This document shows positions 1 through 13,743 of a DNA stretch of 32,000 bases, piece after piece. The notes beneath the pieces are model-generated. The model was not told where the DNA came from, ran no database searches, and was given only the letters and a program-made list of their open reading frames with translations. A program made the position numbers and the translations under genes. The stretch is taken from positions 3,720,001-3,752,000 of the forward strand of contig NZ_LN831039.1 in NCBI RefSeq assembly GCF_001457595.1, written 5' to 3'. Positions within the stretch are counted from its first letter, which is position 1; the number at the start of each line of letters is the position of its first letter. The stretch comes from Mycolicibacterium smegmatis. GTDB lineage: Bacteria; Actinomycetota; Actinomycetes; Mycobacteriales; Mycobacteriaceae.

Positions 1-94
1 GCTCGACGACGTCAAGGCCCTGATCCGGTCGCGGGAACCGGTCGACCCCGACCTGCTGGCCGATCCGGGCCGGCCGCTCAACGCGCCCGGCTGA
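1..94 (+). CDS. 3' end of an unidentified CDS entering from upstream of the window
   Basis: Frame 2 reads ...LDDVKALIRSREPVDPDLLADPGRPLNAPG* with G/C-rich third positions and TGA at 92-94. It is too short to assign a family. Confidence 0.35.
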   Translation, partial: LDDVKALIRSREPVDPDLLADPGRPLNAPG

Positions 95-231
95 GCAGGG
101 CGATCGCCGCGGCGCTGGGAATGCGCTGCGGGTCAACCGTATTCTCGGCATTCCCGGCCGTGCCCGGCGTGCGCTGTAACGTGCACACGGCCGCCCGTGC
201 CCGGACAATCGATACACGTGACGGCAGAAAG

Positions 232-909
232 GTGAGCCCGTTGAACGTCGCCCCAGCCGAACTGACCGGCACCGAACAGGCAGTTCTGCTGGTGCTCATG
301 GCCGAGTCGCGGCCCGTGCCCAATCCGGACCTCGAACGGCTCGGACCGAAGCTCGACAAGCGGGGCCGGGACCGGCTCAACGAACTGGGGCTGATCGAGA
401 CCACACCGGGGCGTCCGCTGGTCCACGAACTCACCGACGCGGGTTGGGCGGTGTGCCGCCAGTTGCTCGCCGCCGACACACCGCCGCGGTCGTCCGGCCA
501 GGGCCGCGCTCTCTACACCGTGCTCAGAGCGCTGCACCGCCACCTCGAACGCGCAGATCTCGCGCCGGCCGACGTGTTCCTGCCTGGCGACTCGCCGGCG
601 CCTGCCGCCGTCGACACGCCGGGCACCGCGAGCGGCTACGCGCTCGCGCCGCGCGCCGAGGAGGCCCTGCGGGCCGCCTACGCGAGGCTCGCGGACCGGC
701 CCGGCGGCTGGGTCGGCCTGGCCCGGCTGCGCGGCGAGGTGCCCGATCTGCCGCGCAAAGAGGTCGACGCGGCTTTGATCAGCCTCTACCAGCAGCCGGG
801 TGTGAGCCTGATTCCCGAAGAGAACCAGAAGACGCTGACCGAAGCCGATCGCGCCGCCGCCGTGCGCATCGGTGACCAGAACAAACACCTGATCGCGATC
901 GAGTCCTGA
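232..909 (+). CDS. Winged-helix DNA-binding protein of unknown function, first gene of a two-gene cassette
   Basis: The track ORF is 121..909. Codons 121-231 have many A/T third positions, unlike the rest, so GTG 232 or TTG 241 (preceded by GAAAGG at 227-232) is the likelier start. LTGTEQAVLLVLMAESRPVPNPDLERL...LNELGLIET...LVHELTDAGW has a MarR/PadR-like wHTH pattern. The C-terminal segment GWVGLARLRGEVPDLPRKEVDAALISLYQQ looks like a second winged-helix-like module. Stop TGA 907-909 overlaps ATG 909-911 of the next gene (TGATG). Confidence 0.6.
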   Translation: MSPLNVAPAELTGTEQAVLLVLMAESRPVPNPDLERLGPKLDKRGRDRLNELGLIETTPGRPLVHELTDAGWAVCRQLLAADTPPRSSGQGRALYTVLRALHRHLERADLAPADVFLPGDSPAPAAVDTPGTASGYALAPRAEEALRAAYARLADRPGGWVGLARLRGEVPDLPRKEVDAALISLYQQPGVSLIPEENQKTLTEADRAAAVRIGDQNKHLIAIES

Positions 910-3900
910 TGCAGCAACACGAACGGGAAGCGCTCAGCGCGCTGCGGCTCACCTGGGCGCCCACGGCCGACGACCTGTGGCACTCGCAGGGCGCGCTGCA
1001 CGTGCCCGGCCTGCACGAACGGGCCATGACCGACGTGCTTGCCGCGTTCGACGACGCCGCGCGCGAGACCGATTCCAGCCCGCTCGGGGTCGTCGTGCGC
1101 GGACCGGCCGGTTCGGGCAAGACGCACCTGCTCGGTCAGGTGCGCGAACGCGTGCAGACCGCGGGCGGCTTCTTCTTCCTGGTCGAACTGCTCGACGCCA
1201 CGAGCTTCTGGCAGTCCGCACGCGCGGGCATCCTGGAGAGCCTCGGCCGCCCCGGCGGGGAGCGGGAAACCCAGCTCAAAGACCTGCTGTGGGAACTGGC
1301 GTCGATCGCCCACATCTCGCGGGCCAATCGCCGCGCCATCATCGGCGACGACGACCTGACGCCGGAGATCCTCACCGATTTCGTCACCGCGCTGCACAAG
1401 GCCAGGCGCCAGACGGTCAAACGCGCCCACCACACGCTGCGGGCGCTGGTCCTGCTGGGCGCCGCGGATCTGGACCTGCAGGACATCGGCGAGGCCTTCC
1501 TCGTCGGCAACGTGGGCACTCTCGGCGCGACCGACGGCTCGGAGGCCGAACTCGCGGCGTGGGGCCTGCCCGTGCCCACCCTGACCCCACAGGAATCGGT
1601 GCGGGACATCTCGCGGTTGGTCGCACTGGCCGGGCCCGCGGTGCTGGCCCTCGACCAGATCGACACGCTGTTGGCGCAGTCCATCGAGCGGACCGCCGAT
1701 CGTGTGTCCGGCGAGAACTCCGAGCCCGCGAGCCTGGACAACCGCGACCTCGAGCACGTGGCCCACGGGCTGATGTCGGTGCGCCAGACCATGCGCCGGA
1801 CGGTGTCGGTGGTCGCGTGTCTGCCCGCGGCGTGGGAGGCCATCGAGAACCGGGCTACCGCGAGTGTGCACGACCGGTTCCGCACCACGGCGCTGCTGCA
1901 GGGCCTGCCGACGCCCGATATCGGCCGCGCGATCCTGGAGCGCCGGTTCTCGGCGACCTACAGCGCCGTCGGGTTCAGCGCGCCGTACCCGAGTTGGCCG
2001 ATCCTGCCGTCGGCGTTCGACGACGCGACGCAGTACACACCGCGGCAGTTGCTCAAGCGCGCCGACGCCCACGTCCGGCACTGCCTGGAGCACGACACCG
2101 TCGAGGAACTCACCCGGCTCACGGGCGAGGTGGACACGACGCACGGGCCCGGCCACGCAGGAGGCACGCGCACCGACACGTCCGAACTGGACCGCCGCTT
2201 CGCCGAGTACCGGAGTCGCGCGGTCACCGCGGCCGCGCTGGATCCCGACGGCGAGGACACCACGATGCCCGGCCTGCTCTCGGCCGCGCTGGAGGCCTGG
2301 ATCACCGAACTCGGCGAGGTCGAGCAGACCTTCTGGCCGGACCCGCCTCCGGGCCAGCGCGTCGTCCTGCATGCACGACTGCGTCAGAGCCTGGACGCGG
2401 CGACCGACGACGAGCGGCACTGGGCGTTTCGCGCGGTCGCGTCCGGGAACGCCATCGCGGTGCAGAACCGCATCAGGAAGGCCTTGGAGGCAACAGGTCT
2501 CAACCCCGAGCGGCGCACGCTGTTCCTGCTGCGCAACACGCCGTGGCCGCGCGGCGCCAAGACGGCCGCGATGGTCGACGAGTTCACGGCGGCGGGCGGA
2601 CGCGTGCTGCCCATGAGCGACGACGACATCCGCACCATGACCGCGCTGCGTGACCTCATCGACGACAACCACCCGGACCTGCCCGGGTGGCTGCGCCGGC
2701 GCAGGCCCGCGCACGCGATCGACCTGTTGCGCGCCGCGCTCGGTGACGTCGCCGGTGAGGCGCCGGACCTGGAGGCCACCGATCCTCGGATGCCCATCGA
2801 ACTCCCCTCTGCGGGAAGCGAATTCGTGCCGCAACCTGATCCTGCCCCGGCAGTGGCGATCGAGCACTCCCCCACCGCGATCACACTCGGCGTGGACGCC
2901 ACCGGCGGGCAACCGGTTTCGGTGGACCTGGCCGCATTGCGCAAGCACACCGCGATCTTCGCCGGCTCGGGCTCGGGCAAGACCGTGCTGATCCGGCGAC
3001 TGGTCGAGGAATGCGCGTTGCGCGGGGTGTCGTCGATCGTGCTGGACCCCAACAACGATCTGTCCCGCCTGGGCAGCAGATGGCCCGAGTCGCCGCCCGG
3101 ATGGAATCCCGCCGACGACGAACGCAGCGACGAGTACTTCGCCAACACCGAGGTGGTGGTGTGGACGCCGCGCCGGGCCACCGGGCGGCCTTTGTCGTTC
3201 CAGCCGCTGCCGGATTTCGCGAGCGTGCTCGACGACGACGATGAGTTCTCCGACGCCGTCGAATCGGCTGTCGCCGCGCTGGAGCCGCGGGCACTGATCG
3301 TCGGGAACACCGCGAAGGCCAACCGGTCGCGCGCGGTGCTGCGCGAGGCGCTGCGCTATTACGGCGCGTCGCGGTCGGTGACACTGAGCGGGTTCATCGA
3401 CCTGCTGGGCGATCTGCCCGACGACGTCAGCGCACTGGGCAACGCCCGCGCGCTCGCGGCCGAACTCGGGCAGAACCTGCGCGCGGCGACCGTGAACGAT
3501 CCGCTGTTCGGCGGCGCGGGCACCGCGGCCGATCCCGGCGTGCTGCTGACACCGTCTGCCGGCTACCGCGCGCGGGTTTCGGTGATCAGCATGGTGGGGC
3601 TGACCAACGAACAGCAGCGCGAGGGGTTCGTCAACCAACTCCAGATGGCGTTGTTCGCATGGATCAAACGCAATCCGGCAGGCAACCGGCCGCTGGGCGG
3701 GCTTCTGGTGATGGACGAGGCGCAGAACTTCGCGCCGTCCAGCCACACCACCGCCTCCACGCACAGCACGCTCGCGCTGTCGTCGCAGGCCCGCAAGTAC
3801 GGCCTGGGCCTGGTGTTCGCGACACAGTCGCCGCGCGGGCTGCACAACCACATCCCCGGCAACGCCGCGACGCAGTTCTACGGGCTGCTGAACTCACCGG

Positions 3901-4115
3901 CACAGATCGCGGTCGCCAGGGAGATGGCGCGCGTCAAGGGCGGCCTGGTGCCGGACATCAGCAGGCTGCGCTCGGGACAGTTTTATCTGGCGTTGGAGGG
4001 CAACGCCTTCCACAAGATCCAGACACCGTGGTGCCTGTCGCACCACCCGCCGAGCCCGCCGACCACCGACGAGGTGCTGAGGTTGGCGCAGCAGCGCGAA
4101 CCCGCAGCACCCTGA
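909..4115 (+). CDS. 1068-aa dual P-loop NTPase: N-terminal AAA/ORC-BrxD-like module plus C-terminal HerA/FtsK-superfamily (DUF87-like) module
   Basis: Uninterrupted GC3-rich ORF. Walker A no.1 is GPAGSGKT (nt 1101-1124), with a putative Walker B VLALDQID (1641-1664). Walker A no.2 is GSGSGKT (2964-2984), followed by Walker B LLVMDEAQNFAP (3702-3737) and then ARKYGLGLVFATQSP. That motif order is typical of HerA/FtsK/VirB4-type ATPases. Family assignment is by eye only. Confidence 0.85.
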   Translation: MQQHEREALSALRLTWAPTADDLWHSQGALHVPGLHERAMTDVLAAFDDAARETDSSPLGVVVRGPAGSGKTHLLGQVRERVQTAGGFFFLVELLDATSFWQSARAGILESLGRPGGERETQLKDLLWELASIAHISRANRRAIIGDDDLTPEILTDFVTALHKARRQTVKRAHHTLRALVLLGAADLDLQDIGEAFLVGNVGTLGATDGSEAELAAWGLPVPTLTPQESVRDISRLVALAGPAVLALDQIDTLLAQSIERTADRVSGENSEPASLDNRDLEHVAHGLMSVRQTMRRTVSVVACLPAAWEAIENRATASVHDRFRTTALLQGLPTPDIGRAILERRFSATYSAVGFSAPYPSWPILPSAFDDATQYTPRQLLKRADAHVRHCLEHDTVEELTRLTGEVDTTHGPGHAGGTRTDTSELDRRFAEYRSRAVTAAALDPDGEDTTMPGLLSAALEAWITELGEVEQTFWPDPPPGQRVVLHARLRQSLDAATDDERHWAFRAVASGNAIAVQNRIRKALEATGLNPERRTLFLLRNTPWPRGAKTAAMVDEFTAAGGRVLPMSDDDIRTMTALRDLIDDNHPDLPGWLRRRRPAHAIDLLRAALGDVAGEAPDLEATDPRMPIELPSAGSEFVPQPDPAPAVAIEHSPTAITLGVDATGGQPVSVDLAALRKHTAIFAGSGSGKTVLIRRLVEECALRGVSSIVLDPNNDLSRLGSRWPESPPGWNPADDERSDEYFANTEVVVWTPRRATGRPLSFQPLPDFASVLDDDDEFSDAVESAVAALEPRALIVGNTAKANRSRAVLREALRYYGASRSVTLSGFIDLLGDLPDDVSALGNARALAAELGQNLRAATVNDPLFGGAGTAADPGVLLTPSAGYRARVSVISMVGLTNEQQREGFVNQLQMALFAWIKRNPAGNRPLGGLLVMDEAQNFAPSSHTTASTHSTLALSSQARKYGLGLVFATQSPRGLHNHIPGNAATQFYGLLNSPAQIAVAREMARVKGGLVPDISRLRSGQFYLALEGNAFHKIQTPWCLSHHPPSPPTTDEVLRLAQQREPAAP

Positions 4116-4119
4116 CCCG

Positions 4120-4160
4120 AAAAAAGAGGCCGGCCACCGAGGTTCGGTGACCGGCCCCTT
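4120..4160 (-). terminator. Intrinsic terminator between convergent genes (clear for the leftward ABC operon, possibly bidirectional)
   Basis: Hairpin GGCCGGCCACC (4128-4138) / GGTGACCGGCC (4146-4156): 11 bp with one C-A mismatch and a 7-nt loop. On the minus strand it is followed by TCTTTTTT (complement of 4120-4127). It lies 13 nt after the stop of the rightward ATPase gene. Confidence 0.6.
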
Positions 4161-4169
4161 GTGCGTAGA

Positions 4170-5219
4170 TCAGGGCTGGGTCTGCCCCGGGATGCCCTCG
4201 TAGGCGATGTCGCCCGTCTTGAGGTTCTGCTGTGTGAGCTCCACCAGACCGTCGAGGAACTTCTGGCGCTCGGTCACCACGTGCTCGATCGCGACGTCGA
4301 CGTTGTCCTTGGTGATCGCGGGCATGACGTAGACCGGATCGGTCTTGACATCCTCGCCCTTCACCAGCGCGTCGGCGACCGCGAGCCCCGCCGACAGTTC
4401 GACGGTGCCGTTCTGCAGTGACGTGCCGATGAAATCACCGCTCTTGACGGCGTTCAGACCGTCCTCGATGCCGTCGATCCCGACGATCGGCACGCCCGTG
4501 CGGCCGGCTTCCTTGAGCGCCTGCAGCGCACCGAGACCCATGTCGTCGTTCTGCGCGACCACGCCGTCGATCTGCGGGCCGAACGACGAGATCCAGTTCT
4601 TCATCTTGTTGACGGCCTCGTCGCGCTTCCAGTTCGCGGTGTCCTTGGCCAGCACCTTGATGTCGGGATACTTGGCGAGCACCTGGTCGATGCCCTTGCC
4701 GCGGTTGATCTCTCCGGAGCCGCCGAGTGGGCCCTGCAGGATCACGATGTTGCCCTTGCCGCCGAGGCGGTCGGCCATCATCTGCATCTCCTGCGCACCG
4801 GCCGCCACGTCGTCCGGTTGCACGTTGCCGGCCAGGTCGGGAGTCTCCAGCGCGGCGTTGACCGCGAGCAGCGGGATGCCCTTGGACTTGGCCGAGGCGA
4901 CCTGCGGGCCGAGCGAATCCGCCTGCACCGGAACGACGATGATGGCGTCCACGCCCTGGTTGATCAGCGAGTCGACCTGGCTGGCCTGGGTGGACACGTC
5001 GTTGTTGGCCGAGTTCCACACCAGCTCGATGTTGTTGGCCTTGGCGTAGGTGTCCATCCCCTCCTTGCCCTCGGTGATGAACGAGCTCATGTCGTACACC
5101 GTGACGCCGATGCGCTTGGTGTCGCTGTTGGCCGCGGTGTCGCCCGCGCCGCACGCGGTCAGGCCCAGTCCGACGGCCCCGGCGGCGGCAATCGCGCCGA
5201 TCTTCGACGTGATGTTCAT
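4170..5219 (-). CDS. ABC sugar/polyol substrate-binding lipoprotein (PBP type I, CUT2/ribose-like), copy 1
   Basis: 349 aa. The N-terminus [23 protein letters not shown] is a signal peptide plus lipobox (LTAC). The body has the periplasmic monosaccharide-binding pattern. SD GAAAGG lies upstream of the ATG. Confidence 0.9.
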
Positions 5220-5253: not shown

Positions 5254-6303
5254 TCAGGGCTGCTTCTGGCCGGGGATGCCCTCGTAGGCGATGTCGCCGG
5301 TTTCGAGGTTCTTGTTGATCAGCTCGGTGAGGCCGTCGAGGAACTGCTGACGCTCGGTGACCACGTGCTCGATCGCGACGTCGACGTTGTCCTTGGTGAT
5401 CGCGGGCATGATGTACACGGGCTCTTTGTTGACCGGTTCGCCCTTGGCGAGGCGGTTGGCCACCGCGAGACCGGCCGCGAGTTCGACGGTGCCGTTCTGC
5501 AGTGAGGTGCCGATGAAATCACCGCTCTTGACGGCGTTCAGACCGTCCTCGATGCCGTCGATGCCGACGATCGGCACGCCTGTGCGGCCGGACTCCTTGA
5601 GCGCCTGCAGCGCACCGAGACCCATGTCGTCGTTCTGCGCCACCACACCGTCGATCTGCGGCCCGAAGCCCGAGATCCAGTTCTTCATCTTGTTGACGGC
5701 CTCGTCGCGCTTCCAGTTCGCAGTGTCCTTGGCCAGCACCTTGATGTCCGGATACTTGGCCAGGACCTGCTCGATGCCCTTGCTGCGGTCCAGTTCACCG
5801 GACTGCCCCAGCGGACCCTGCAGGATCACGATGTTGCCCTTGCCGCCGAGGCGGTCAGCCATCATCTGCATCTCCTGCGCGCCTGCGGCCACATCGTCGG
5901 GCTGGACGTTGCCCGCGATGTCCTTGCTGTCGAGCGCGGCGTTGACCGGGACCAGCGGGATGCCCTTGGCCTTGGCCGAGGCGACCTGCGGCGCGAGCGA
6001 ATCCGCCTGCACGGGAACGACGATGATCGCGTCCACGCCCTGGTTGATCATGGAGTCGACCTGGCTGGCCTGCGTCGAGACGTCGAGATTGGCCGAGTTC
6101 CAGATCAACTCGATGTTGTTGTCCTTGGCGTAGGCGTCCATCCCCTCCTTGCCTGCGGTGATGAACGAGCTCATGTCGTACACCGTCACGCCGATGCGCG
6201 TGGTGTCACTGTTCGCGGCGGGGTCACCCGCACCGCAAGCCGTCAGACCCAGCCCCAGCGCGGTTGCCGAGGCGATCGCGAACGCCGTTGTCCCCAGTCT
6301 CAT
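5254..6303 (-). CDS. ABC sugar/polyol substrate-binding lipoprotein, copy 2 (tandem paralogue of 4170..5219)
   Basis: 349 aa. [23 protein letters not shown] carries the lipobox. It aligns without gaps to the downstream copy, with about 300/349 identical residues by my count. SD AGAAGG lies upstream. Confidence 0.9.
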
Positions 6304-6344
6304 CTGCCTTCTCTTTCAGTTGTTGTGGATGTGTCGTGGTGCCG

Positions 6345-7379
6345 TCAAGTTCGTCGCCGGGACGACCACACGTCGACCGCGACCGCGGCGACGATCAGCA
6401 CGCCCTTGATGACGTCCTGCCAATAGGCCGGGACCACCAGGATGTCCAGGCCGTTGTTGAGGGTCTGGATCATCAGCAGACCCAACGCGGTACCCCAGAT
6501 GGTTCCGCGGCCGCCCATGAGGCTCGCGCCACCGATCACGACGGCCGCGATGGCGTCGAGTTCGTAACCCTGGCCGAGGTTGGGCGGACCGGAGATGACG
6601 CGCGACGCCAGCATGACGCCCGACAGACCGGCCAGCAGACCCGAGAACGCGTAAACGCTGAACAGCACGTTCTTGGCGTTGATACCGGCGATCTCGGCGG
6701 CGTGGCGGTTGCCGCCGACGGCGTAGACCCGCATGCCGTAGGTGGTGCGCTTCATGATGATCGCGAGCGCGATGATGCCGATGATCATCAGCAGCACCGG
6801 GATCTGCAGACCCAGGATCTTGGTGTTGGCGATCGACCCGAACTCCGGCGGCAGGCCGTTGATCGGTGCGCCGCCGCCGATCACATACGCCAGACCAGAC
6901 CCCGCGGTGAGCGTGCCCAGGGTGGCGATGAACGGCGGGACATTGATGCGCGACACCAGGAATCCGTTGACGCAGCCCACCGCGAGACCGACCAGCATCG
7001 ACACCAGCACGGTCAGCCACACCTGGCCGGGGTTGGCCTTCGCGGTGGCCGCGCCCGCCATGGCCGACACCGCGATGACGCTGCCGACCGACAGGTCGAT
7101 GCCGCCGGTCAGGATGACCAGCGTCTGCCCCAGCGCGATGAGCGCGAAAGGTGCTGCGGCGACGAGGATCGTCACCAGGTTGTCCGGGGTGGCGAACCGG
7201 GCGCTGCGGTAGCTGAAGTACGCGATGACCAGCAGCATCACGATCACCATCGAGTAGCGCACCGCGATGCCCGTGGCCCAGGCCCGGGAGAACAGCTTGA
7301 CGGGTTCGCCCGTGGTCGGTGAGGTGACGGTGGCGGAGGAATCCGGCACGGCGTCGTCGGGTTTCAATTCGGTGGTCAC
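6345..7379 (-). CDS. ABC sugar transporter permease (RbsC/AraH-like)
   Basis: 344 aa and highly hydrophobic with multiple predicted spans. Contains the LTGGIDLSVGS motif typical of CUT2 permeases. The GTG start at 7377-7379 overlaps the TGA stop (7376-7378) of the upstream ATPase gene. Confidence 0.9.
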   Translation of the reverse strand: MTTELKPDDAVPDSSATVTSPTTGEPVKLFSRAWATGIAVRYSMVIVMLLVIAYFSYRSARFATPDNLVTILVAAAPFALIALGQTLVILTGGIDLSVGSVIAVSAMAGAATAKANPGQVWLTVLVSMLVGLAVGCVNGFLVSRINVPPFIATLGTLTAGSGLAYVIGGGAPINGLPPEFGSIANTKILGLQIPVLLMIIGIIALAIIMKRTTYGMRVYAVGGNRHAAEIAGINAKNVLFSVYAFSGLLAGLSGVMLASRVISGPPNLGQGYELDAIAAVVIGGASLMGGRGTIWGTALGLLMIQTLNNGLDILVVPAYWQDVIKGVLIVAAVAVDVWSSRRRT

Positions 7380-8914
7380 GATGTGATCTCCTGGCTTGTC
7401 TGGTCACTTCTGGCGTCCAGTGCGGTGGCCAACCGGAACACCGACTCTTGGACCTCGGGATGGTCGAGCGCTTCTCGGTCGAGTTCGCCGACAAACGCGC
7501 CGCCGCGCATGACGAAGGCGCGATGGGACAGGCCGACGACCTCCGGCATGTCCGAGGACGCCATCACCACGGCCATCCCCTGCGCGGCGAATTCGGTGAT
7601 GATGCGGTAGATCTCGCTGCGGGCGCCGACGTCGACGCCGCGTGTGGGCTCGTCGAGCAGCAGGACGTTGACCTTGCCGGTCAGCCACCGCGCGAGCACC
7701 ACCTTCTGCTGGTTGCCGCCGGAGAGCGTGCCGACCTCCTGGCCGAGCCCGCGGCTGCGCAGCCGCACCGACGACATCACCTCCGACACGGCCTGCGTGC
7801 GGGACTTGCCCCGCAGCCAGCCCGCGATGGAGAACGAGGACAGCCGCGGCAGCGTGCCGTTGTCCAGGACGCTCATCGACAGCACCGCACCGGACAGCTT
7901 GCGGTCCTCGGGCACCATCGCCATGCCCGCGGTGATCGCGGCCGCGGGCTGGTTGCGTTTGACGCTGCGCCCGCGCACCACCACGTCACCCGCGGTGCTG
8001 CGGCGGGCGCCGAAGATGGCCTCCAGCAACTCGGTTCGCCCGGCGCCGACCAGCCCGGCCAGACCGACGATCTCACCGGCGCGCACCGAGAAGGACACCG
8101 GTTCCGAGGCGCCCTCGACCTGAAGGTCGCGCACCTCGAGCACGGTCTCGTCGGCGGGTTCGGGACGGTCCGGGAACAGCGCCTCGAGTTCGCGGCCGAT
8201 CATCGCGGTGACGATGTCGTCGTCGGACACGTCGTCGATCGGTTTGTCGAGGATCAACCCGCCGTCGCGCAGCACCACGACACGGTCGGCGATCGCGCGG
8301 ATCTCGGCCATCTTGTGCGTGGTGTAGACCATCGCGACACCGTGGTCGCGCAGCCTACGCACGATCTTGTACAGGCCCTCCACCTCGCGCTCGGAGATCG
8401 CCGAGGTCGGCTCGTCGAGCATCACCACCTGGGCGCCGGTGCGGGCGGCCTTGACGATCTCGACTATCTGGCGCAGGCCCACGGGCAGGCTGCCCATGCG
8501 GGCGGTCGGCGAGATGCCGACGTCGAAGACCGCGAGGGTCTCCTTGGCCTCGGCGATCATCGCGCGCCGGTTGAGGAACGGTCCGCGCTTGAGTTCACGT
8601 CCGACGAACAGGTTCTCGTAGACGGTCATGTCCTCGATGGACGCGAGTTCCTGCGGCACGATCGCCACACCGTGCCGGACGGCGTCGCGCGTGTTGCCCG
8701 GGGTGAGGGTGGCGCCCTTGACCGACACCTCACCCTGGTCGGCGTTGTACTGACCCGAGATGATCTTCATCAGCGTGGACTTGCCTGCGCCGTTCTCGCC
8801 GGCCAGCGCGGTGACCGTACCGGGCTCGAGTTGCAGGCTGATGCCCTTGAGCACCGGCACACCGCCGAAACTCTTGTGGATGTCGGTGCATTCGAGCAGA
8901 GCGTTGGGACTCAT
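7376..8914 (-). CDS. ABC sugar transporter ATP-binding protein with two fused NBDs (RbsA-like)
   Basis: 512 aa. Walker A GENGAGKST is in the first half; GLVGAGRTE plus signature LSGGNQQK are in the second half. The ATG at 8912-8914 overlaps the stop of the upstream dehydrogenase gene (ATGA). Confidence 0.92.
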   Translation of the reverse strand: MSPNALLECTDIHKSFGGVPVLKGISLQLEPGTVTALAGENGAGKSTLMKIISGQYNADQGEVSVKGATLTPGNTRDAVRHGVAIVPQELASIEDMTVYENLFVGRELKRGPFLNRRAMIAEAKETLAVFDVGISPTARMGSLPVGLRQIVEIVKAARTGAQVVMLDEPTSAISEREVEGLYKIVRRLRDHGVAMVYTTHKMAEIRAIADRVVVLRDGGLILDKPIDDVSDDDIVTAMIGRELEALFPDRPEPADETVLEVRDLQVEGASEPVSFSVRAGEIVGLAGLVGAGRTELLEAIFGARRSTAGDVVVRGRSVKRNQPAAAITAGMAMVPEDRKLSGAVLSMSVLDNGTLPRLSSFSIAGWLRGKSRTQAVSEVMSSVRLRSRGLGQEVGTLSGGNQQKVVLARWLTGKVNVLLLDEPTRGVDVGARSEIYRIITEFAAQGMAVVMASSDMPEVVGLSHRAFVMRGGAFVGELDREALDHPEVQESVFRLATALDARSDQTSQEITS

Positions 8915-9957
8915 GACGGGTTTCCCATCGATACCAGGACTTTCACGTTCTCACCGTCGGCCGAGGCCGCGAATGCCTCGTCGGTGTGGTCGAATTCGTA
9001 TTCGGCGCTGATGATCTCGTCGACCGGCACCGCGCCCGATGCGAGCATGTCGATGGCGGCGGCGAAATCGTCGCGAACGTACATCAGGTTGCCGATGAGT
9101 GCGATCTCGCGGTCCTGGATCAACCCGAGCGGCACGGGTGTGGCGCCTTCGGCGACCCCGACGATCATCACCGCACCGCCCTTGTCCACCAGGTCGACCG
9201 CCTGGGCCACCGAGCTCTCGCGCGCCACGCAGTCGATCACCACCGCGGCCGGACCGCCGAGCAGATCGAGCGCGGTCGCGACCGCGTCGGGGGCTGCGGG
9301 ATCGAAAGTGCCGACGGCGCCGAGCCGTTCGGCGCGTACCCGTTTGGACTCCAGCAGATCGGCCACCACGACCCGCGCGCCCGCGTGGCGGGCGGCCAGC
9401 AGCGCGAACAGGCCGATGGGTCCGGCGCCGATCACGACGACCGGGCGGTCCGTGAGATCACCGACGACCTGCTCGGCGCGGCGCACGGTGTGCACCGGGG
9501 TGGCCAGCGGTTCGATGAGGATCGCGTGGCGGTCGTCGAGGGCGTCGTCGAGTCGTACGAGCCGGTCGGCGCCGATGACGAACGAGTCAGCGAGCGCGCC
9601 CGGGGTCTGGCAGCCGAACACCCGCAGTTCGCGGCAGATGTTGTAGCGCCCGTCGCGGCACTGTGCGCACGCACCGCACGCCAGGTTGGGTTCGACGGCC
9701 ACGCGTGCGCCCAGCCAGGAGTCGTCGACTCCCGCACCGAGCATCTCCACCACGCCGACGGCCTCGTGTCCGGGCCGGTACGGCAGGTCGATGAACGGGT
9801 GGTGTCCGCACGCGGCGTGCAGATCGGATCCGCAGATGCCAACCAGCACGGTGCGCACCCGCACCTCGCCGGGGCCCGGCTCCGGTTGCGGCACGGTCTC
9901 GATCGCGATGTCGTCGAGCGCGCTGACGACGACCCTTCTGATCTCGGTTCCTACCAT
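8911..9957 (-). CDS. Zn-dependent medium-chain dehydrogenase (polyol/threonine dehydrogenase-like)
   Basis: 348 aa. Contains GICGSDLH, PGHE, the structural-zinc motif CGACAQCRDGRYNIC, and the Rossmann motif VIGAGPIG. Confidence 0.88.
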   Translation of the reverse strand: MVGTEIRRVVVSALDDIAIETVPQPEPGPGEVRVRTVLVGICGSDLHAACGHHPFIDLPYRPGHEAVGVVEMLGAGVDDSWLGARVAVEPNLACGACAQCRDGRYNICRELRVFGCQTPGALADSFVIGADRLVRLDDALDDRHAILIEPLATPVHTVRRAEQVVGDLTDRPVVVIGAGPIGLFALLAARHAGARVVVADLLESKRVRAERLGAVGTFDPAAPDAVATALDLLGGPAAVVIDCVARESSVAQAVDLVDKGGAVMIVGVAEGATPVPLGLIQDREIALIGNLMYVRDDFAAAIDMLASGAVPVDEIISAEYEFDHTDEAFAASADGENVKVLVSMGNPS

Positions 9958-10718
9958 GCGGTGTATCCGCCGTCCGCGACGAGCACCGAGCCGGTGATGA
10001 AGGAGGCCGCGTCGCTGGCCAGGAACACCACGCTGGGCGCGATCTCCTCGGGCACCGCGTAGCGCAGCTGCGGGGTGTCGTCGATCCAGTACCGCTTGAA
10101 CTCCGGCCGGTCAACCGGGGCCATGTCGGTCTTCACGTATCCGGGAGCCAGCGCGTTGACCCGGATTCCCAACGGGGCCCACTCGGCGGCAAGGGATTTC
10201 GTGAGGTGGTGCACCGCGGCCTTGGAGGCGTTGTACGCGGGCTGCATCTGGGGGCGGTTGACGATGATGCCCGACATCGAGCCGATGTTGACCACCGAGC
10301 CGCTGCCGCGCTCACGCATGTGCGCACCGACGGCGAGCGAACACGCCCACAGCGCCTTGACGTTGAGGTCGAACACGTCGTCCCACTGCTCTTCGGTGAC
10401 CGTCCAGGACTCACCGTGGTGGCACGTGCCCGCGTTGTTGACCAGGATGTCGATGTGACTGAGCGCGTCGATGGCCTCGGCCGTCATGCGCTCGACGTCC
10501 TCGGCCCTGGTGATGTCGGCCGTGATCGCGTGCAGTTGGTGTCCGGCCGCGGCGGCCTCGGCCGCGGTCTTCTCGTTGCGTTCGGCGTTGCGGCCCGAGA
10601 AGGCCACACGGGCACCGGCCTGTGCGAGTGCGATCGCGAAAGCCTTGCCCAGGCCCTGGTTTCCGCCGGTCACCAGCGCAGTGCGCCCGCTCAGATCGAA
10701 TGCCGAACGCACATCCAT
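9951..10718 (-). CDS. Classical short-chain dehydrogenase/reductase (polyol or ketose reductase-like)
   Basis: The track ORF extends to 10892, but its first 58 codons are Arg/Pro-rich junk that overlaps the upstream gene. ATG 10716-10718 (MDVRSAFDLSGRTALVTGGNQGLG) is preceded by AAGGGGAG. Contains the NNAG and YNASK motifs. Confidence 0.85.
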   Translation of the reverse strand: MDVRSAFDLSGRTALVTGGNQGLGKAFAIALAQAGARVAFSGRNAERNEKTAAEAAAAGHQLHAITADITRAEDVERMTAEAIDALSHIDILVNNAGTCHHGESWTVTEEQWDDVFDLNVKALWACSLAVGAHMRERGSGSVVNIGSMSGIIVNRPQMQPAYNASKAAVHHLTKSLAAEWAPLGIRVNALAPGYVKTDMAPVDRPEFKRYWIDDTPQLRYAVPEEIAPSVVFLASDAASFITGSVLVADGGYTAW

Positions 10719-10744
10719 AGCGGTGCTCCCCTTCGCTTCGGCCG

Positions 10745-11785
10745 TCACTCGGGCACCACGATCGACTTGAGGCTCGCGGGGTCGCTGTCGCTGTCGAGGG
10801 CCTCGGCGACATGGTCGAGGTCGTAGCGACCGGTCACCAGCGCGTCGAGATCGACAGCACCAGAACTCACGAGATGGATTGCCGCAGGCCACGTGTCGGT
10901 GTACCGGAACACGCCGGTCACGTTGATCTCCATGTTCTGGATGTAGCCGACGGGCAGCGTCACGTCGTCGGCGCCCATGCCGACCAGCACGACGTTGCCC
11001 GCGGGGCCGACGGCCTTGATGCCGGACACCACGGCAGGCGCGGCGCCGCTGGCATCGACGAACGCGTCGACCTTGGGGTCGAGTGCGGCGACGTCATCGA
11101 CCGCGGGATCGAGCACCTCGGTGGCCCCGAACCGCAGGACCCGCTCGCGGCGTTCGGCCACCAGATCGGTCACCACGATGCGCGCGGCACCGAACGCGCG
11201 CGCGGTCTGCGCGCAGATCACGCCGATGGGCCCGGCGCCTGCGATGAGGATCGACGAACCTGGTACGACGCCGGCCTTGCGCATGGTCGCGATGGCCACC
11301 GACAGCGGTTCGAGCAGCGCCGCGGCGTCGTCGGAGATGGAGTCCGGCACGGCATGGGCCATGTCGTCGTCGATGGTGACGTAGCGGCAGAACGCCCCGT
11401 CGATCGGCGGGGTGGCATAGAACTTGATCTCGGGGCACAGGTTGTAGCGGCCGGCCTTGCACTGCTCGCAGCGCCGGCACGGGTGCTGCGGTTCGACCGC
11501 GACGCGCTGTCCGACCCGTGCGGGGTCGACGCCCTCACCGACCGCCGCGATCCGTCCCGACAACTCGTGGCCCAGGATCATCGGCTCGTTGACCACGAAG
11601 TCGCCGATACGACCGTGCCGGTAGTAGTGCACGTCGGAACCGCACACCCCGACGGCCGCGACCTCGACGAGCACCTCGTGCGGGCCCGGGGTCGGCACCG
11701 GCCGGTCCTCCACCACCACCGTGCCCACCGAGGTAAGCACGCTGGCGCGCATGGTGCCGCGGGCATCGGCTGCGACGGCGTTCAT
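10745..11785 (-). CDS. Sorbitol/xylitol (L-iditol 2-) dehydrogenase-like Zn-dependent MDR enzyme
   Basis: Contains GVCGSDVHYY, GHELSG, CRRCEQCKAGRYNLC and FYATPPIDGAF (the polyol dehydrogenase signature region). The start was chosen at ATG 11783-11785 (MNAVAAD...), preceded by AAAGGA. ATG 11752 or the track start 11854 remain possible. Confidence 0.85.
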   Translation of the reverse strand: MNAVAADARGTMRASVLTSVGTVVVEDRPVPTPGPHEVLVEVAAVGVCGSDVHYYRHGRIGDFVVNEPMILGHELSGRIAAVGEGVDPARVGQRVAVEPQHPCRRCEQCKAGRYNLCPEIKFYATPPIDGAFCRYVTIDDDMAHAVPDSISDDAAALLEPLSVAIATMRKAGVVPGSSILIAGAGPIGVICAQTARAFGAARIVVTDLVAERRERVLRFGATEVLDPAVDDVAALDPKVDAFVDASGAAPAVVSGIKAVGPAGNVVLVGMGADDVTLPVGYIQNMEINVTGVFRYTDTWPAAIHLVSSGAVDLDALVTGRYDLDHVAEALDSDSDPASLKSIVVPE

Positions 11786-11926
11786 CTCGTTTCCTTTCCG
11801 GGGCGCGACCGGCGGTCTGCAGGCATGCATGGCCGTCGCGTCCGAGTTGCTCATCTGTTAGCGCGAAATCTCATTTGATGCTTGTGATGTGGATCATGCA
11901 ATGCTCTATGCTCATGTGTCAACGCG

Positions 11927-11944
11927 TCTGCACATATGTGCAGA
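11927..11944. promoter_or_regulatory. 18-bp perfect palindrome TCTGCACATATGTGCAGA in the divergent promoter region; candidate SorC-regulator operator
   Basis: Read directly from the sequence; it equals its own reverse complement. It lies in a locally AT-richer ~200-bp gap between the leftward dehydrogenase/ABC operon and the rightward SorC gene. Confidence 0.5.
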
Positions 11945-11983
11945 ACGTCGGTGCAGAGCGGCCGGACAGAAGGGAGATGCGGC

Positions 11984-12964
11984 ATGGGACCCGATGAGCT
12001 GTTCCAACGCGCGGTGATCGCGCGCCGCTACTACCTCGAAGGACGAACCCGCGTCCAGATCGCCGAGGAATTCGGCATCTCCCGGTTCAAGGTCGCCCGC
12101 ATGCTCGACGAAGCACTCGGCTCCGGCATGGTCGAGATCAAGATCCACAACCCGGGATCCATCGACGTCGAGCTGTCCACCGCGCTGCAGCGGCGCTACG
12201 GGCTACAGCACGCGTACGCCGTGATGACCAGCCCCGACAGCGATCCGCGCGGCACCGACACCGTCGGCGCCGACGACCGCGTCGCCTCGGTCGCCAAGGC
12301 CATGGCCGAGCTGCTGCAGTCGATCCTGCGCGACGGCGACGTGATCGGCGTGGACTGCGGCCGCACCCTGGCGCACATCGCCGACCACATCACCGAACTC
12401 CCGCACTGCGACGTCGTCCAGCTCACCGGTATGGCAGGCGCGATCACGCACAACGGCGTCGACCTGGTGCGCCGGATCAGCGAGGTCAGCGGCGGGCAGA
12501 CCTGGCCGCTGTATGCCCCGCTGGTGGTGTCGGACGCCCGCACGGCCGCGAGCCTGGCGAGCAGCCAGCAGATCCAGGACACCATCGCGCAGCACGCGAA
12601 GGTCACGTGCGCGATCGTCTCGGTCGGCGCCTGGGTCGAGGGCGCCTCGCAGGTGTACAGCTCGCTGACCACCACCGAGGTGGAGGCCCTGGAGGCCGCG
12701 GGCGTGTGCGCCGAATCGTGCGCGCTGCTGCTCGACGCCGAAGGCAACCGCCTGCCCGGGCTCGACGACCGCCGGATGGGCATCGACGAGGCCACACTGC
12801 GGGAGATCCCGACCGTCATCGCGATCGCCACCGGCCCGGAGAAGATCGCGGCGACACGCGCGGTGCTGCGCTCGGGAATGGTCTCATCACTGGTCACCGA
12901 CGTCGAGATCGCCGCCGCGGTGCTCGACGACAACGCAAACGAGGAAGGCGCAAAGCGAACATGA
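11984..12964 (+). CDS. SorC/DeoR-type sugar-binding transcriptional regulator
   Basis: RRYYLEGRTRVQIAEEFGISRFKVARMLDEA is the characteristic SorC-family N-terminal HTH, followed by a sugar-phosphate-binding-like domain. ATG 11984 is preceded by AGGGAG (11971-11976). The track start 11936 lies inside the palindrome. Stop TGA 12962-12964 overlaps the ATG at 12961 of the next gene. Confidence 0.85.
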   Translation: MGPDELFQRAVIARRYYLEGRTRVQIAEEFGISRFKVARMLDEALGSGMVEIKIHNPGSIDVELSTALQRRYGLQHAYAVMTSPDSDPRGTDTVGADDRVASVAKAMAELLQSILRDGDVIGVDCGRTLAHIADHITELPHCDVVQLTGMAGAITHNGVDLVRRISEVSGGQTWPLYAPLVVSDARTAASLASSQQIQDTIAQHAKVTCAIVSVGAWVEGASQVYSSLTTTEVEALEAAGVCAESCALLLDAEGNRLPGLDDRRMGIDEATLREIPTVIAIATGPEKIAATRAVLRSGMVSSLVTDVEIAAAVLDDNANEEGAKRT

Positions 12965-13743
12965 CTCAGGCACAAGAGCTCTCGGTCGACTTCGACTTCA
13001 GGCTCGACGGCAAGGTGGCGCTGGTGACCGGCGCCGCGTCCGGGATCGGCGCCGCGATCGCCTCGGCGTATGCCACCAAGGGCGCCCGCATCGCCGCGGT
13101 CGATCTCAACGCCGAGGGTGCCGAGGCGCTCGCCGCCCAACTGGGTGGCGACCGCGGTGCGCATCGTGGCTTCGCGTGCGACGTCGCCGACGCGGCATCG
13201 GTGCAGGCCGCCGCCGACGCCGTCGCCGCGGAGTTCGGCCGCATCGACATCCTGGTGAACAGTGCCGGTGTCGCCCGTCTGGCGCCGGCCGAGGAACTGT
13301 CCCTTCAGGATTGGGACAGCACGCTCGCGATCAACCTCAGCGGCACGTTCCTGATGTGCCAGGCCGTGGGCAAACGGATGCTCGAGGCCGGCGGCGGCGC
13401 CATCGTCAACATGGCGTCACAGGCCGCGACGGTCGCCCTGGATCAGCACGTGGCGTACTGCGCGTCGAAGTTCGGCGTGGTCGGCGTGTCGAAAGTGCTT
13501 GCCGCCGAATGGGGTGGGCGCGGCGTGCGGGTCAACACCATCTCGCCCACCGTGGTCCTGACCGAACTTGGCCACAAGGCGTGGGACGGCCCGCGCGGGG
13601 ATGCCCTCAAGAAGCTCATCCCCACGGGCCGGTTCGCCTACCCGGACGAGATCGCCGCGGCCGCAGTGTTCCTCGCGTCCGACGCCGCCGCGATGATCAA
13701 CGGCGCCGACCTGGTCATCGACGGCGGCTACACCATCAAGTAG
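12961..13743 (+). CDS. Classical SDR oxidoreductase (polyol dehydrogenase-like), translationally coupled to the SorC gene
   Basis: Begins MTQAQELSVDFDFRLDGKVALVTGAASGIG. Contains NSAG and YCASK. ATGA overlap with the upstream gene. The track ORF from 12607 is an out-of-context 5' extension. Confidence 0.88.
   Translation: MTQAQELSVDFDFRLDGKVALVTGAASGIGAAIASAYATKGARIAAVDLNAEGAEALAAQLGGDRGAHRGFACDVADAASVQAAADAVAAEFGRIDILVNSAGVARLAPAEELSLQDWDSTLAINLSGTFLMCQAVGKRMLEAGGGAIVNMASQAATVALDQHVAYCASKFGVVGVSKVLAAEWGGRGVRVNTISPTVVLTELGHKAWDGPRGDALKKLIPTGRFAYPDEIAAAAVFLASDAAAMINGADLVIDGGYTIK

Follow-up and report, generated by a model that had tools for sequence, protein, structure and literature searches.

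The window analysed here, that is the whole stretch of 32,000 nucleotides (nt) extending from position 3,720,001 to position 3,752,000 of the forward strand of Mycolicibacterium smegmatis contig NZ_LN831039.1, carries near its left end two overlapping genes, the first of which encodes a small protein predicted to consist of two winged helices and the second a protein of 1068 amino acids (aa), hereafter called BIG, that unites an AAA+ NTPase module with a HerA/FtsK-type translocase module. This pair is a nuclease-less, vertically fixed variant of a kind of system that has been predicted in silico and not a categorically new fusion. Both open reading frames (ORFs) are present on the plus strand, that of the small gene at 121–909 and that of BIG at 909–4115; the stop codon TGA of the former (907–909) and the start codon ATG of the latter (909–911) have one base in common, and the resulting TGATG overlap (907–911) is read as translational coupling of the small gene to BIG. 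An original prediction made on this DNA had placed the two ORFs, the overlap, both P-loops and the two motif-bearing segments described below precisely where they are found, and was also right in assigning to BIG two different NTPase modules, as indicated by the Pfam and Foldseek matches and by the structural model.

The two protein products

For the small gene (plus strand, to 909), TTG 241 is the most likely start, giving 222 aa, and not ATG 121, because its homologues begin at an aligned M-x-V, because similarity to the DNA of other species sets in again at nt ~241 and because the NCBI annotation of locus L001 gives 222 aa. Several assemblies annotate the gene from ATG 121 (262 aa). The longer version is probably an annotation artefact, since the 40 extra codons are unconserved in any homologue and lie within the stretch that has replaced a lost DUF559 gene (see below).

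In the AlphaFold model of the small protein (mean predicted local distance difference test, pLDDT, 72) a MarR-like winged helix (aa ~10–80) is joined by a linker (~83–137), variable in sequence and modelled with low confidence, to a second winged helix (~139–224) that bears, in its mycobacterial form, the near-invariant motif LIPEENQK...HLIAI. The structural neighbours found by Foldseek are MarR/RosR-type regulators (E 4e-3 and weaker), ScpB and TubR appearing lower in the list, and a cross-phylum profile of the protein matches ZitR (E 1e-3) over the first winged-helix unit. No family was found for the protein in Pfam, NCBIfam, PADLOC or PHROGs and no sequence match in the PDB. Thus, the original prediction of a small winged helix-turn-helix (wHTH) protein stands, with two winged helices supported by the model, and only its start had to be corrected. 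Alignments show the protein to be homologous across phyla, and it defines a new two-winged-helix family that has no Pfam entry.

The BIG model was built from a 60-sequence alignment (mean pLDDT 86.9) and its layout was read from DSSP; in the numbering used here residue n begins at nt 909+3(n−1), and residue counts out of 60 refer to family members drawn from several phyla. The N-terminal AAA+ NTPase module (aa 1–330; 909–1898, plus strand) is recognised by the Pfam families AAA_22 (1.3e-11) and AAA_16 (5.3e-8), each of which passes its cut-off, at aa ~42–175; the model adds a helical insertion at aa ~97–240 and a lid at aa 336–395. Its Walker A motif, GPAGSGKT (aa 65–72; 1101–1124, or 1101–1127 for GPAGSGKTH), contains the lysine K71. 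In its Walker B motif, LALDQID (aa 246–252; 1644–1664, plus strand), a glutamine takes the place of the catalytic glutamate: D249 is present in 60/60 sequences, Q250 in 59/60 and glutamate in 0/60 (D249-Q250, 1653–1658). Indeed, a profile search paired this D-Q motif with the Walker B of an engineered Cdc48 E→Q mutant. In AAA+ enzymes the Walker B E→Q substitution leaves ATP binding intact and cripples hydrolysis; the D-Q motif is the natural counterpart of this engineered "trap" mutation. The D-Q motif therefore makes it more likely that this module works as a switch than as a motor. As to its affinities within the AAA+ class, the orc1/cdc6 model TIGR02928 scores E 0.14 against BIG and Hda/DnaA 1.6e-4, and the profile of the module finds in the PDB weak generic AAA+ matches (Cdc48 5e-3, DnaA 0.06).

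The middle of the protein is occupied by an insert predicted to resemble a restriction endonuclease (aa 449–568; 2253–2612, plus strand), with the model topology alpha-beta-beta-beta-alpha-beta(-alpha-beta) that is found in restriction-endonuclease (PD-(D/E)XK) cores; their canonical D...(D/E)xK motif is missing from the insert, but the polar residues E467, H488, R490, E502, H504, R508, R521, R536 and R542 are invariant or nearly so. Profile searches against the PDB and member-by-member Pfam scans gave nothing meaningful for aa 421–620. The insert is followed in the model by a three-helix, helix-turn-helix (HTH)-like unit (aa 571–615; 2619–2753, plus strand), in which W594, L595 and P600 are conserved, and then by a Pro/Ala-rich linker between the two halves of BIG (aa 623–651; 2775–2861, plus strand), variable in length and sequence in the alignment and modelled with a pLDDT < 50.

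The C-terminal half is a HerA/FtsK-type P-loop translocase module (aa 657–1040; 2877–4028, plus strand) identified by Pfam DUF87, PADLOC and Foldseek. The DUF87/HerA-central match of Pfam covers aa 666–783 (1.5e-10), its score of 42 bits exceeding the cut-off of 23.2, and the motifs of HerA/FtsK proteins (GxxGxGK[ST] as Walker A, hhhhDE as Walker B and a conserved Arg/Gln beyond the Walker B strand) are present in this half. The Walker A, GSGSGKT (aa 686–692; 2964–2984), has K691 in 60/60 sequences; the Walker B, LLVMDEAQNF (3702–3731), with D936-E937 likewise in 60/60, is covered by the segment LLVMDEAQNFAP (aa 932–943; 3702–3737), and the segment QARKYGLGLVFATQSP (aa 960–975; 3786–3833) contains Q973 (60/60) and R962 (57/60), the latter being a candidate arginine finger. 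A four-helix insertion (3237–3497, plus strand), with helices at aa 777–791, 802–819, 826–834 and 846–863 of the model, interrupts the domain; no FtsK-alpha-like region is present in the BIG model.

The best 50 PDB matches listed by Foldseek for BIG are all HerA-type chains (HerA, TdpA, DndH C-domain; E 2e-11 to 7e-8), the alignments spanning ~420–510 columns. At the top stands HerA–NurA (9x1m, 2e-11), and the matches include Sulfolobus solfataricus HerA (4d2i), 7wrw and Deinococcus radiodurans HerA, as well as SIR2-HerA, DUF4297-HerA, TdpAB and the DndH C-domain (7es4, TM-score 0.59 on the target). Among the PADLOC profiles the best is mad8 of the MADS system (1.8e-19), the match being partial and at the domain level, and the PADLOC HerA profiles give partial matches over short stretches (E 9e-10 and weaker). 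The NCBIfam HerA equivalogs reach ~22–23 bits against cut-offs of 800–970, and the Pfam families nSTAND5 (25.1 < 34) and NACHT (24 < 26.7), touching only the P-loop, remain below their cut-offs.

A three-gene cassette that lost its nuclease in most Mycolicibacterium species

An exhaustive profile-free search yielded 3004 cluster representatives of the BIG fusion, 619 of them at E<=1e-30, many of which align with BIG end to end at 33–54% identity. Members occur in Actinomycetota, Cyanobacteria, Gamma- and Deltaproteobacteria, Myxococcota and Planctomycetota, those that carry a name being from Rhodococcus, Natronoglycomyces, Nitrosococcus, Ca. Magnetomorum, Leptolyngbyaceae, Romeria, Sorangium, Tautonia and Desulfobulbaceae. 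Because full-length homologues of both the small protein and BIG number in the hundreds, neither gene is a chance ORF.

A hidden Markov model (HMM) census of 178 fetched loci (L numbers), in which synteny was followed by tblastn and by HMM searches of six-frame ORFs, found a small-gene homologue directly upstream of BIG in 161/162 loci with room for it, and a start codon overlapping the small-gene stop by 1 or 4 nt (−1/−4) available in 137/169; the co-expression of the two genes proposed in the original prediction is thereby corroborated. In the one exception, L139, ~1.5 kb is inserted between the small gene (3798–4451) and BIG (5992). Outside the mycobacteria the genes usually form a three-gene operon in the order DUF559 (Vsr-like endonuclease) gene, small gene, BIG, with 49 complete and 9 partial triads as opposed to 15 loci containing the pair only. 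The DUF559 partner is a protein of ~350 aa in which Pfam recognises, at the C-terminal end, a DUF559/MTES_1575 (Vsr-like) endonuclease domain, whose catalytic-type residues show no variation between actinobacteria, cyanobacteria and planctomycetes. Its N-terminal ~250 aa, which match no Pfam family, are also conserved (P76, W78, W178 and L179 being invariant), as seen for example in L098 (4230–5000) and L091 (853–1650).

The flanks of the cassette are different in every distant genome. In some cases they comprise toxin–antitoxin genes, IS200-type (Y1) transposases, STAND (signal transduction ATPases with numerous domains) NTPases or PADLOC-positive genes, ordinary metabolic genes being just as frequent. 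In the metagenomic loci L099–L178 some of the nearest neighbours match the PADLOC profiles mad8 (4), mad3 (3), mad6, PDC-S03, HEC-02A, AriA, SspH and a type I methyltransferase, to which three Uma2 endonucleases (Pfam) can be added; these PADLOC and Pfam figures are family-level counts. A few metagenomic cassettes adjoin MADS-like or other defence genes, and in L104 there is an apparent second HerA-like gene downstream. No relative was found in 50,697 phage records or in 2.9 million viral contigs, and 4 of 72,556 plasmid records contain one; at least three of the four resemble chromosomes or chromids, namely a record of 11.9 Mb, a megaplasmid of 1.57 Mb and a record of 224 kb with ribosomal-protein operons. 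In L089 (NZ_LR134464.1, Tsukamurella tyrosinosolvens "plasmid 22", a record labelled plasmid, yet bearing the main ribosomal-protein operons) an inserted island located between rpsQ and rplN (5541–13012) contains VapBC, the DUF559–small gene–BIG triad, a gene with a transcriptional-activator domain and a DEAD/DEAH helicase.

When one genome of each species was scanned, 224 relatives were returned, and the best 80 of the 224 are all from Mycolicibacterium/Mycobacterium (63–85% identity). The closest species keep the left flank of the M. smegmatis locus (amino-acid permease ... DUF72, ferredoxin reductase), and part of them also its right flank, a sugar ATP-binding cassette (ABC) operon. The order in M. 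grossiae (L098) is ferredoxin reductase, DUF559, small gene, BIG, glyoxalase and the same sugar ABC operon, so that M. smegmatis shares this site with M. grossiae, which has retained the nuclease gene there. Among mycobacterial species the triad occurs in 15 loci and the bare pair in 60, as well as in all 8 M. smegmatis contexts. Short or incomplete DUF559 matches directly upstream of the small gene in several Mycolicibacterium species, namely in L042 (7181–7345), L048 (7156–7296), L073 (6277–6945) and L081 (7319–7369) look like stages in the decay of the nuclease gene. In M. smegmatis the corresponding position is taken by an intergenic stretch of 146 nt (95–240), where related species hold a DUF559 gene of ~1.05 kb; neither tblastn nor blastn detected a DUF559 remnant in the window, the 146 nt preceding TTG 241 included. 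The comparison with related loci indicates that M. smegmatis and most Mycolicibacterium species have lost the gene by deletion, synteny being otherwise preserved at the locus. The original prediction, which saw no nuclease partner, was therefore correct for M. smegmatis but not for the relatives, which usually have a DUF559/Vsr-like gene directly upstream.

Within the nuclease-less clade the ratio of non-synonymous to synonymous substitution rates (dN/dS) is 0.13–0.18 for BIG and 0.14–0.28 for the small gene at a synonymous divergence (dS) of ~0.6–0.9, the corresponding value for the neighbouring reductase gene being 0.12–0.20 at similar dS. Both genes are thus under strong purifying selection over a long divergence, and since this selection has been kept after the loss of the nuclease, the remaining pair must still be useful and the endonuclease is evidently dispensable for whatever selects the pair. 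The cassette is in Mycolicibacterium old, vertically inherited and core-like; its synteny across the genus and its reductase-like dS and dN/dS lend no support to the placement of the pair in a non-core part of the window.

The left border of the locus is the 3′ end of a ferredoxin-reductase-type gene (Pyr_redox_2/Reductase_C; 1–94, plus strand; stop TGA 92–94), of which nt 2–63 align with the 3′ end of the same gene in M. grossiae and other species. This conserved border lies outside the cassette, and the suggestion that the coding sequence ending at nt 94 could belong to the same unit is not upheld. On the other side, an imperfect 15-bp hairpin with an A-run on its left (4124–4160; −26.2 kcal/mol, z = −3.3 against shuffles) is located between BIG and a convergent sugar-binding-protein gene ending at 4170. 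It is likely a bidirectional terminator, as had been anticipated for this convergent junction; a simple consensus scan passed over it because it has no T-run, and the consensus promoter/terminator scan of this high-GC DNA yielded nothing useful. The convergent ABC-transporter operon starts with two tandem genes for periplasmic sugar-binding proteins (4170–5219 and 5254–6303, minus strand) of 349 aa each, ~88–94% identical by tblastn. One M. smegmatis assembly (L002) has a single copy, so that the copy number differs among strains. The GC content of the cassette (69–72%) equals or slightly exceeds that of its neighbours, and no foreign-DNA signature was seen in this comparison of base composition. 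BIG itself shares 99% identity with an M. smegmatis entry at NCBI and occurs as an exact copy in GCA_039889255.1 and further assemblies.

Proposed function and its alternatives

What could be the function of a pair that has survived the loss of its nuclease? On balance, and with some reserve, we favour the reading that it is a nuclease-less derivative of the DUF559–small gene–BIG cassette, and that this cassette is most likely an anti-mobile-element DNA-capture machine of the HerA/FtsK type. The HerA/FtsK module of BIG would assemble into a ring and translocate double-stranded DNA at the expense of ATP; both Walker motifs of this module, the B motif being D-E, and R962 are invariant or nearly so. 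The Orc/Cdc6-like AAA+ module would bind ATP and hydrolyse it poorly, because of the D-Q Walker B present throughout the family, and could act together with the insert and the HTH unit as a nucleotide-dependent switch or loader. The small protein would be responsible for DNA recognition or targeting, by analogy with the role proposed for DndG/DptG beside DndH and for Mad7 beside Mad8, and the cutting of the captured DNA would fall, where the cassette is complete, to the DUF559 enzyme. The M. smegmatis pair, for its part, may depend on a nuclease encoded elsewhere, may use its own endonuclease-like insert or may operate by motor and DNA binding alone.

A more far-reaching version, which we regard as rather doubtful, is that in the fast-growing mycobacteria the capture cassette was stripped of its endonuclease and kept as a core-like, nuclease-free immune or DNA-surveillance motor, or as a domesticated chromosomal machine, the D-Q AAA+ module being an ATP-locked switch that gates the pump. 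Such a nuclease-free version would exclude or evict foreign DNA, or use its own conserved, non-canonical and endonuclease-like insert.

Several points weigh against the capture-machine reading. The pair behaves as a core-like element, found at a single syntenic position in at least 80 genomes at species level, being identical across M. smegmatis strains and evolving as slowly as its metabolic neighbours. One fixed site and core-like evolution are unusual for defence systems. Examination of the gene neighbourhoods, which had been proposed as a check, bore out the co-occurrence of the two genes and the variety of their contexts across phyla, but in M. smegmatis the flanks are metabolic and transport genes and not a defence island; in other phyla the enrichment of defence genes near the cassette is modest, and is a rough impression rather than a statistic. 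A defence role, for which domain content and patchy phyletic spread speak, is plausible. Furthermore, neither the window nor any of the 8 M. smegmatis contexts has a gene for an active endonuclease; the likeness of aa 449–568 to an endonuclease is suggested by the topology of the model, and the scores given above point only faintly to the Orc/Cdc6 clade for the AAA+ module. Finally, the portion available of the supplement text of PMC10853773, the study that predicts the capture class discussed in the next section, contains no accessions of family members.

The same data bear on the other explanations that can be envisaged. The chief alternative is, in mycobacteria, a housekeeping or domesticated role in chromosomal DNA maintenance (repair, processing of recombination intermediates or segregation, as with HerA–NurA and FtsK), in which the nuclease was shed as unneeded. 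The fixed syntenic site, the vertical inheritance with dS and dN/dS like those of the metabolic neighbours, the presence of an identical pair in all M. smegmatis contexts examined and its retention without the nuclease in sixty species are all in keeping with such a role, and two repair helicases, HerA–NurA and D. radiodurans HerA, are among the best structural matches. We nevertheless consider it unlikely, if worth serious attention: a patchy distribution across phyla with unrelated flanks each time is a misfit for universal housekeeping, NurA, Mre11 and Rad50 are not found as partners, and the family is usually accompanied by a Vsr/DUF559-type endonuclease, the genes forming a compact operon of mobile appearance that in Tsukamurella lies in a VapBC island inside a ribosomal-protein operon. 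That the pair is a disarmed relic, functionless after the loss of DUF559 and merely undegraded so far, would explain why the nuclease gene is gone and why fragments of it persist in sister species; it is made very improbable by the intactness of both ORFs in more than 60 nuclease-less species, by the invariance of the catalytic motifs and by a dN/dS of 0.13–0.28 over a dS of ~0.6–0.9.

The remaining alternatives change the nature of the machine. BIG could be an abortive-infection switch resembling STAND and nucleotide-binding leucine-rich-repeat (NLR) proteins, its NTPase sensing a phage protein and its HerA module killing or arresting the cell by ATP drain or genome damage, a scheme with which the D-Q Walker B (switch over motor), the involvement of the HerA partners of SIR2-HerA in abortive infection, known from the literature, and the sub-threshold P-loop matches to nSTAND5, NACHT and Avs2 are consistent. 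These matches, however, are confined to some 30 residues around the P-loop and do not reach the cut-offs (Avs2, E 2e-3 over 32 residues), the BIG model contains no sensor repeats (TPR, WD40, LRR), and three DNA-binding-type units plus a DNA endonuclease partner indicate that the substrate is DNA, so that this scheme appears improbable. Least probable in our estimate is a module for conjugation, for an actinomycete integrative and conjugative element (AICE) or for plasmid transfer or partition, in which an FtsK/TraB-like pump would act with a DNA-binding adaptor. A HerA/FtsK pump with a wHTH protein does superficially resemble the TraB-type systems and there are weak domain-level matches to the P-loops of TraD, VirB4, TrwB and FtsK_SpoIIIE, but the conjugation families score 15–24 bits against cut-offs of 366–643, no relaxase, integrase, Rep or Spd genes are adjacent, and relatives are missing from the phage and viral sets and nearly so from the plasmid records, where at least three of the four hits are chromosome- or chromid-like.

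Under the capture-machine reading the locus becomes a test case for the predicted Orc/Cdc6-coupled capture class in a tractable organism, at a time when HerA/FtsK defence systems such as SIR2-HerA, DUF4297-HerA, DndFGH and MADS are only beginning to be understood. M. smegmatis is amenable to genetics and large collections of mycobacteriophages exist. Moreover, nature provides the comparison between sister species that have the triad and M. smegmatis, which has the pair under purifying selection at the same site; comparing pair and triad could reveal if the effector is the nuclease, which task the D-Q AAA+ module has and whether domestication of a defence cassette is possible. In addition, a large family annotated merely as "DUF87/HerA domain-containing protein" gains a name and a partner set.

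Comparison with known and predicted systems

The claim that the pair falls outside the named systems of this kind is borne out: PADLOC gives the partial mad8/HerA matches mentioned above and BrxC, BrxD, SIR2 and DUF4297 are not matched. In DndFGH/DptFGH and in MADS a HerA/FtsK motor (the DndH C-domain, Mad8) stands, as here, beside a multi-winged-helix protein (DndG/DptG, Mad7); indeed, the MADS supplement describes Mad8 as HerA-like and working beside the DndG-like Mad7. According to the rule of the MADS authors, Mad6 (kinase), Mad7 (DndG-like) and Mad8 are mandatory, to which methyltransferase and specificity genes are added, whereas of these the M. smegmatis locus has only the mad8-like domain, with no kinase, methyltransferase or DndG-like match. 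DndF, DndG and the phosphorothioation genes are likewise not found here, and the DndH match has an E of 0.014 over ~45 residues. The small protein differs from its counterparts in having two winged-helix domains instead of three and displays no similarity to the PADLOC models of DndG/DptG/Mad7/SspB type, and BIG has an AAA+ N-terminal half in place of the N-terminal domains of DndH.

SIR2-HerA, DUF4297-HerA (Gao_Her) and TdpAB combine a hexameric HerA ATPase with an effector and are structurally similar to BIG (E 1e-8 to 1e-10). Their partners SIR2, the DUF4297/Cap4-like nuclease and TdpB are absent at the pair, the first two from within 10 kb as well, and the HerA module of BIG, unlike those of these systems, has no detected N-terminal HAS-barrel and is fused to an AAA+ module. 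HerA–NurA of archaea and Deinococcus, which provides the top structural matches (9x1m, 4d2i, 7wrw), couples a translocase to a nuclease as the full cassette does, but no NurA, Mre11 or Rad50 lies near the pair, the nuclease of the relatives is DUF559, and BIG has in addition the AAA+ half and the wHTH partner. As to BREX, its BrxC/PglY proteins offer a precedent for an Orc/Cdc6/STAND-like AAA+ module in DNA-directed defence (PMC12839542), comparable with the AAA+ module of BIG; neither protein, however, matches a BrxC, PglY, BrxD, PglZ or PglX profile and the neighbouring genes are metabolic and transport genes. Membership in SIR2-HerA/DUF4297-HerA, MADS, DndFGH, BREX, HerA–NurA, the conjugative coupling ATPases or the STAND NTPases was accordingly rejected, the defining features of these groups being absent. 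Literature searches (DUF559 with DUF87, HerA or antiphage; smegmatis HerA) found the cassette undescribed, no characterised system of this composition and no experimental study of a system of the predicted capture kind discussed next.

A much closer counterpart exists among the predicted systems. A comparative-genomic study of Dnd systems (Nucleic Acids Research 2024, PMC10853773) predicts, as an in silico class, "HerA/FtsK capture systems", and PMC12839542 restates this view. The components of one of the capture classes are an Orc/CDC6 AAA+ protein with an inactive restriction endonuclease between the AAA+ core and a C-terminal wHTH, an active restriction endonuclease, a HerA/FtsK domain, one version of which lacks FtsK-alpha and has a 4-helix bundle insertion, and wHTH domains, sometimes in the form of a separate, fast-evolving protein of 2–4 wHTH, all of these being spread over one or several polypeptides (PMC10853773). 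The Orc/CDC6 part is proposed to localise the apparatus on DNA and the HerA/FtsK part to intercept the invading element for the nuclease (PMC10853773). The remark that the fusion was not recognised as part of any described system therefore needs correction, since the class had already been predicted; moreover, the fusion family is large and cross-phylum.

The differences between the M. smegmatis pair and this class concern the nuclease, the insert and the genomic setting. The active endonuclease of the class is present in the relatives of the pair (DUF559) and absent in the window; moreover, the endonuclease of the relatives is DUF559/Vsr-like, and DUF559 is not mentioned among the two families named in PMC10853773. 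The insert of the capture systems is described as inactive, whereas that of BIG keeps its conserved polar set, and because this set is so strongly conserved "inactive" is not established for it. The capture systems are described as mobile, with variable neighbourhoods; here the neighbourhoods vary across phyla and are fixed and syntenic within Mycolicibacterium. On the other hand, the HerA/FtsK domain with a 4-helix insertion and without FtsK-alpha has its equivalent in BIG (aa 777–863), the multi-wHTH partner in the two-winged-helix small protein and, as far as the model topology indicates, the endonuclease-like insert between AAA+ core and HTH in the middle region of BIG, so that, at the level of these comparisons, the domain set found in M. 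smegmatis fits the predicted Orc/CDC6-HerA/FtsK capture class.

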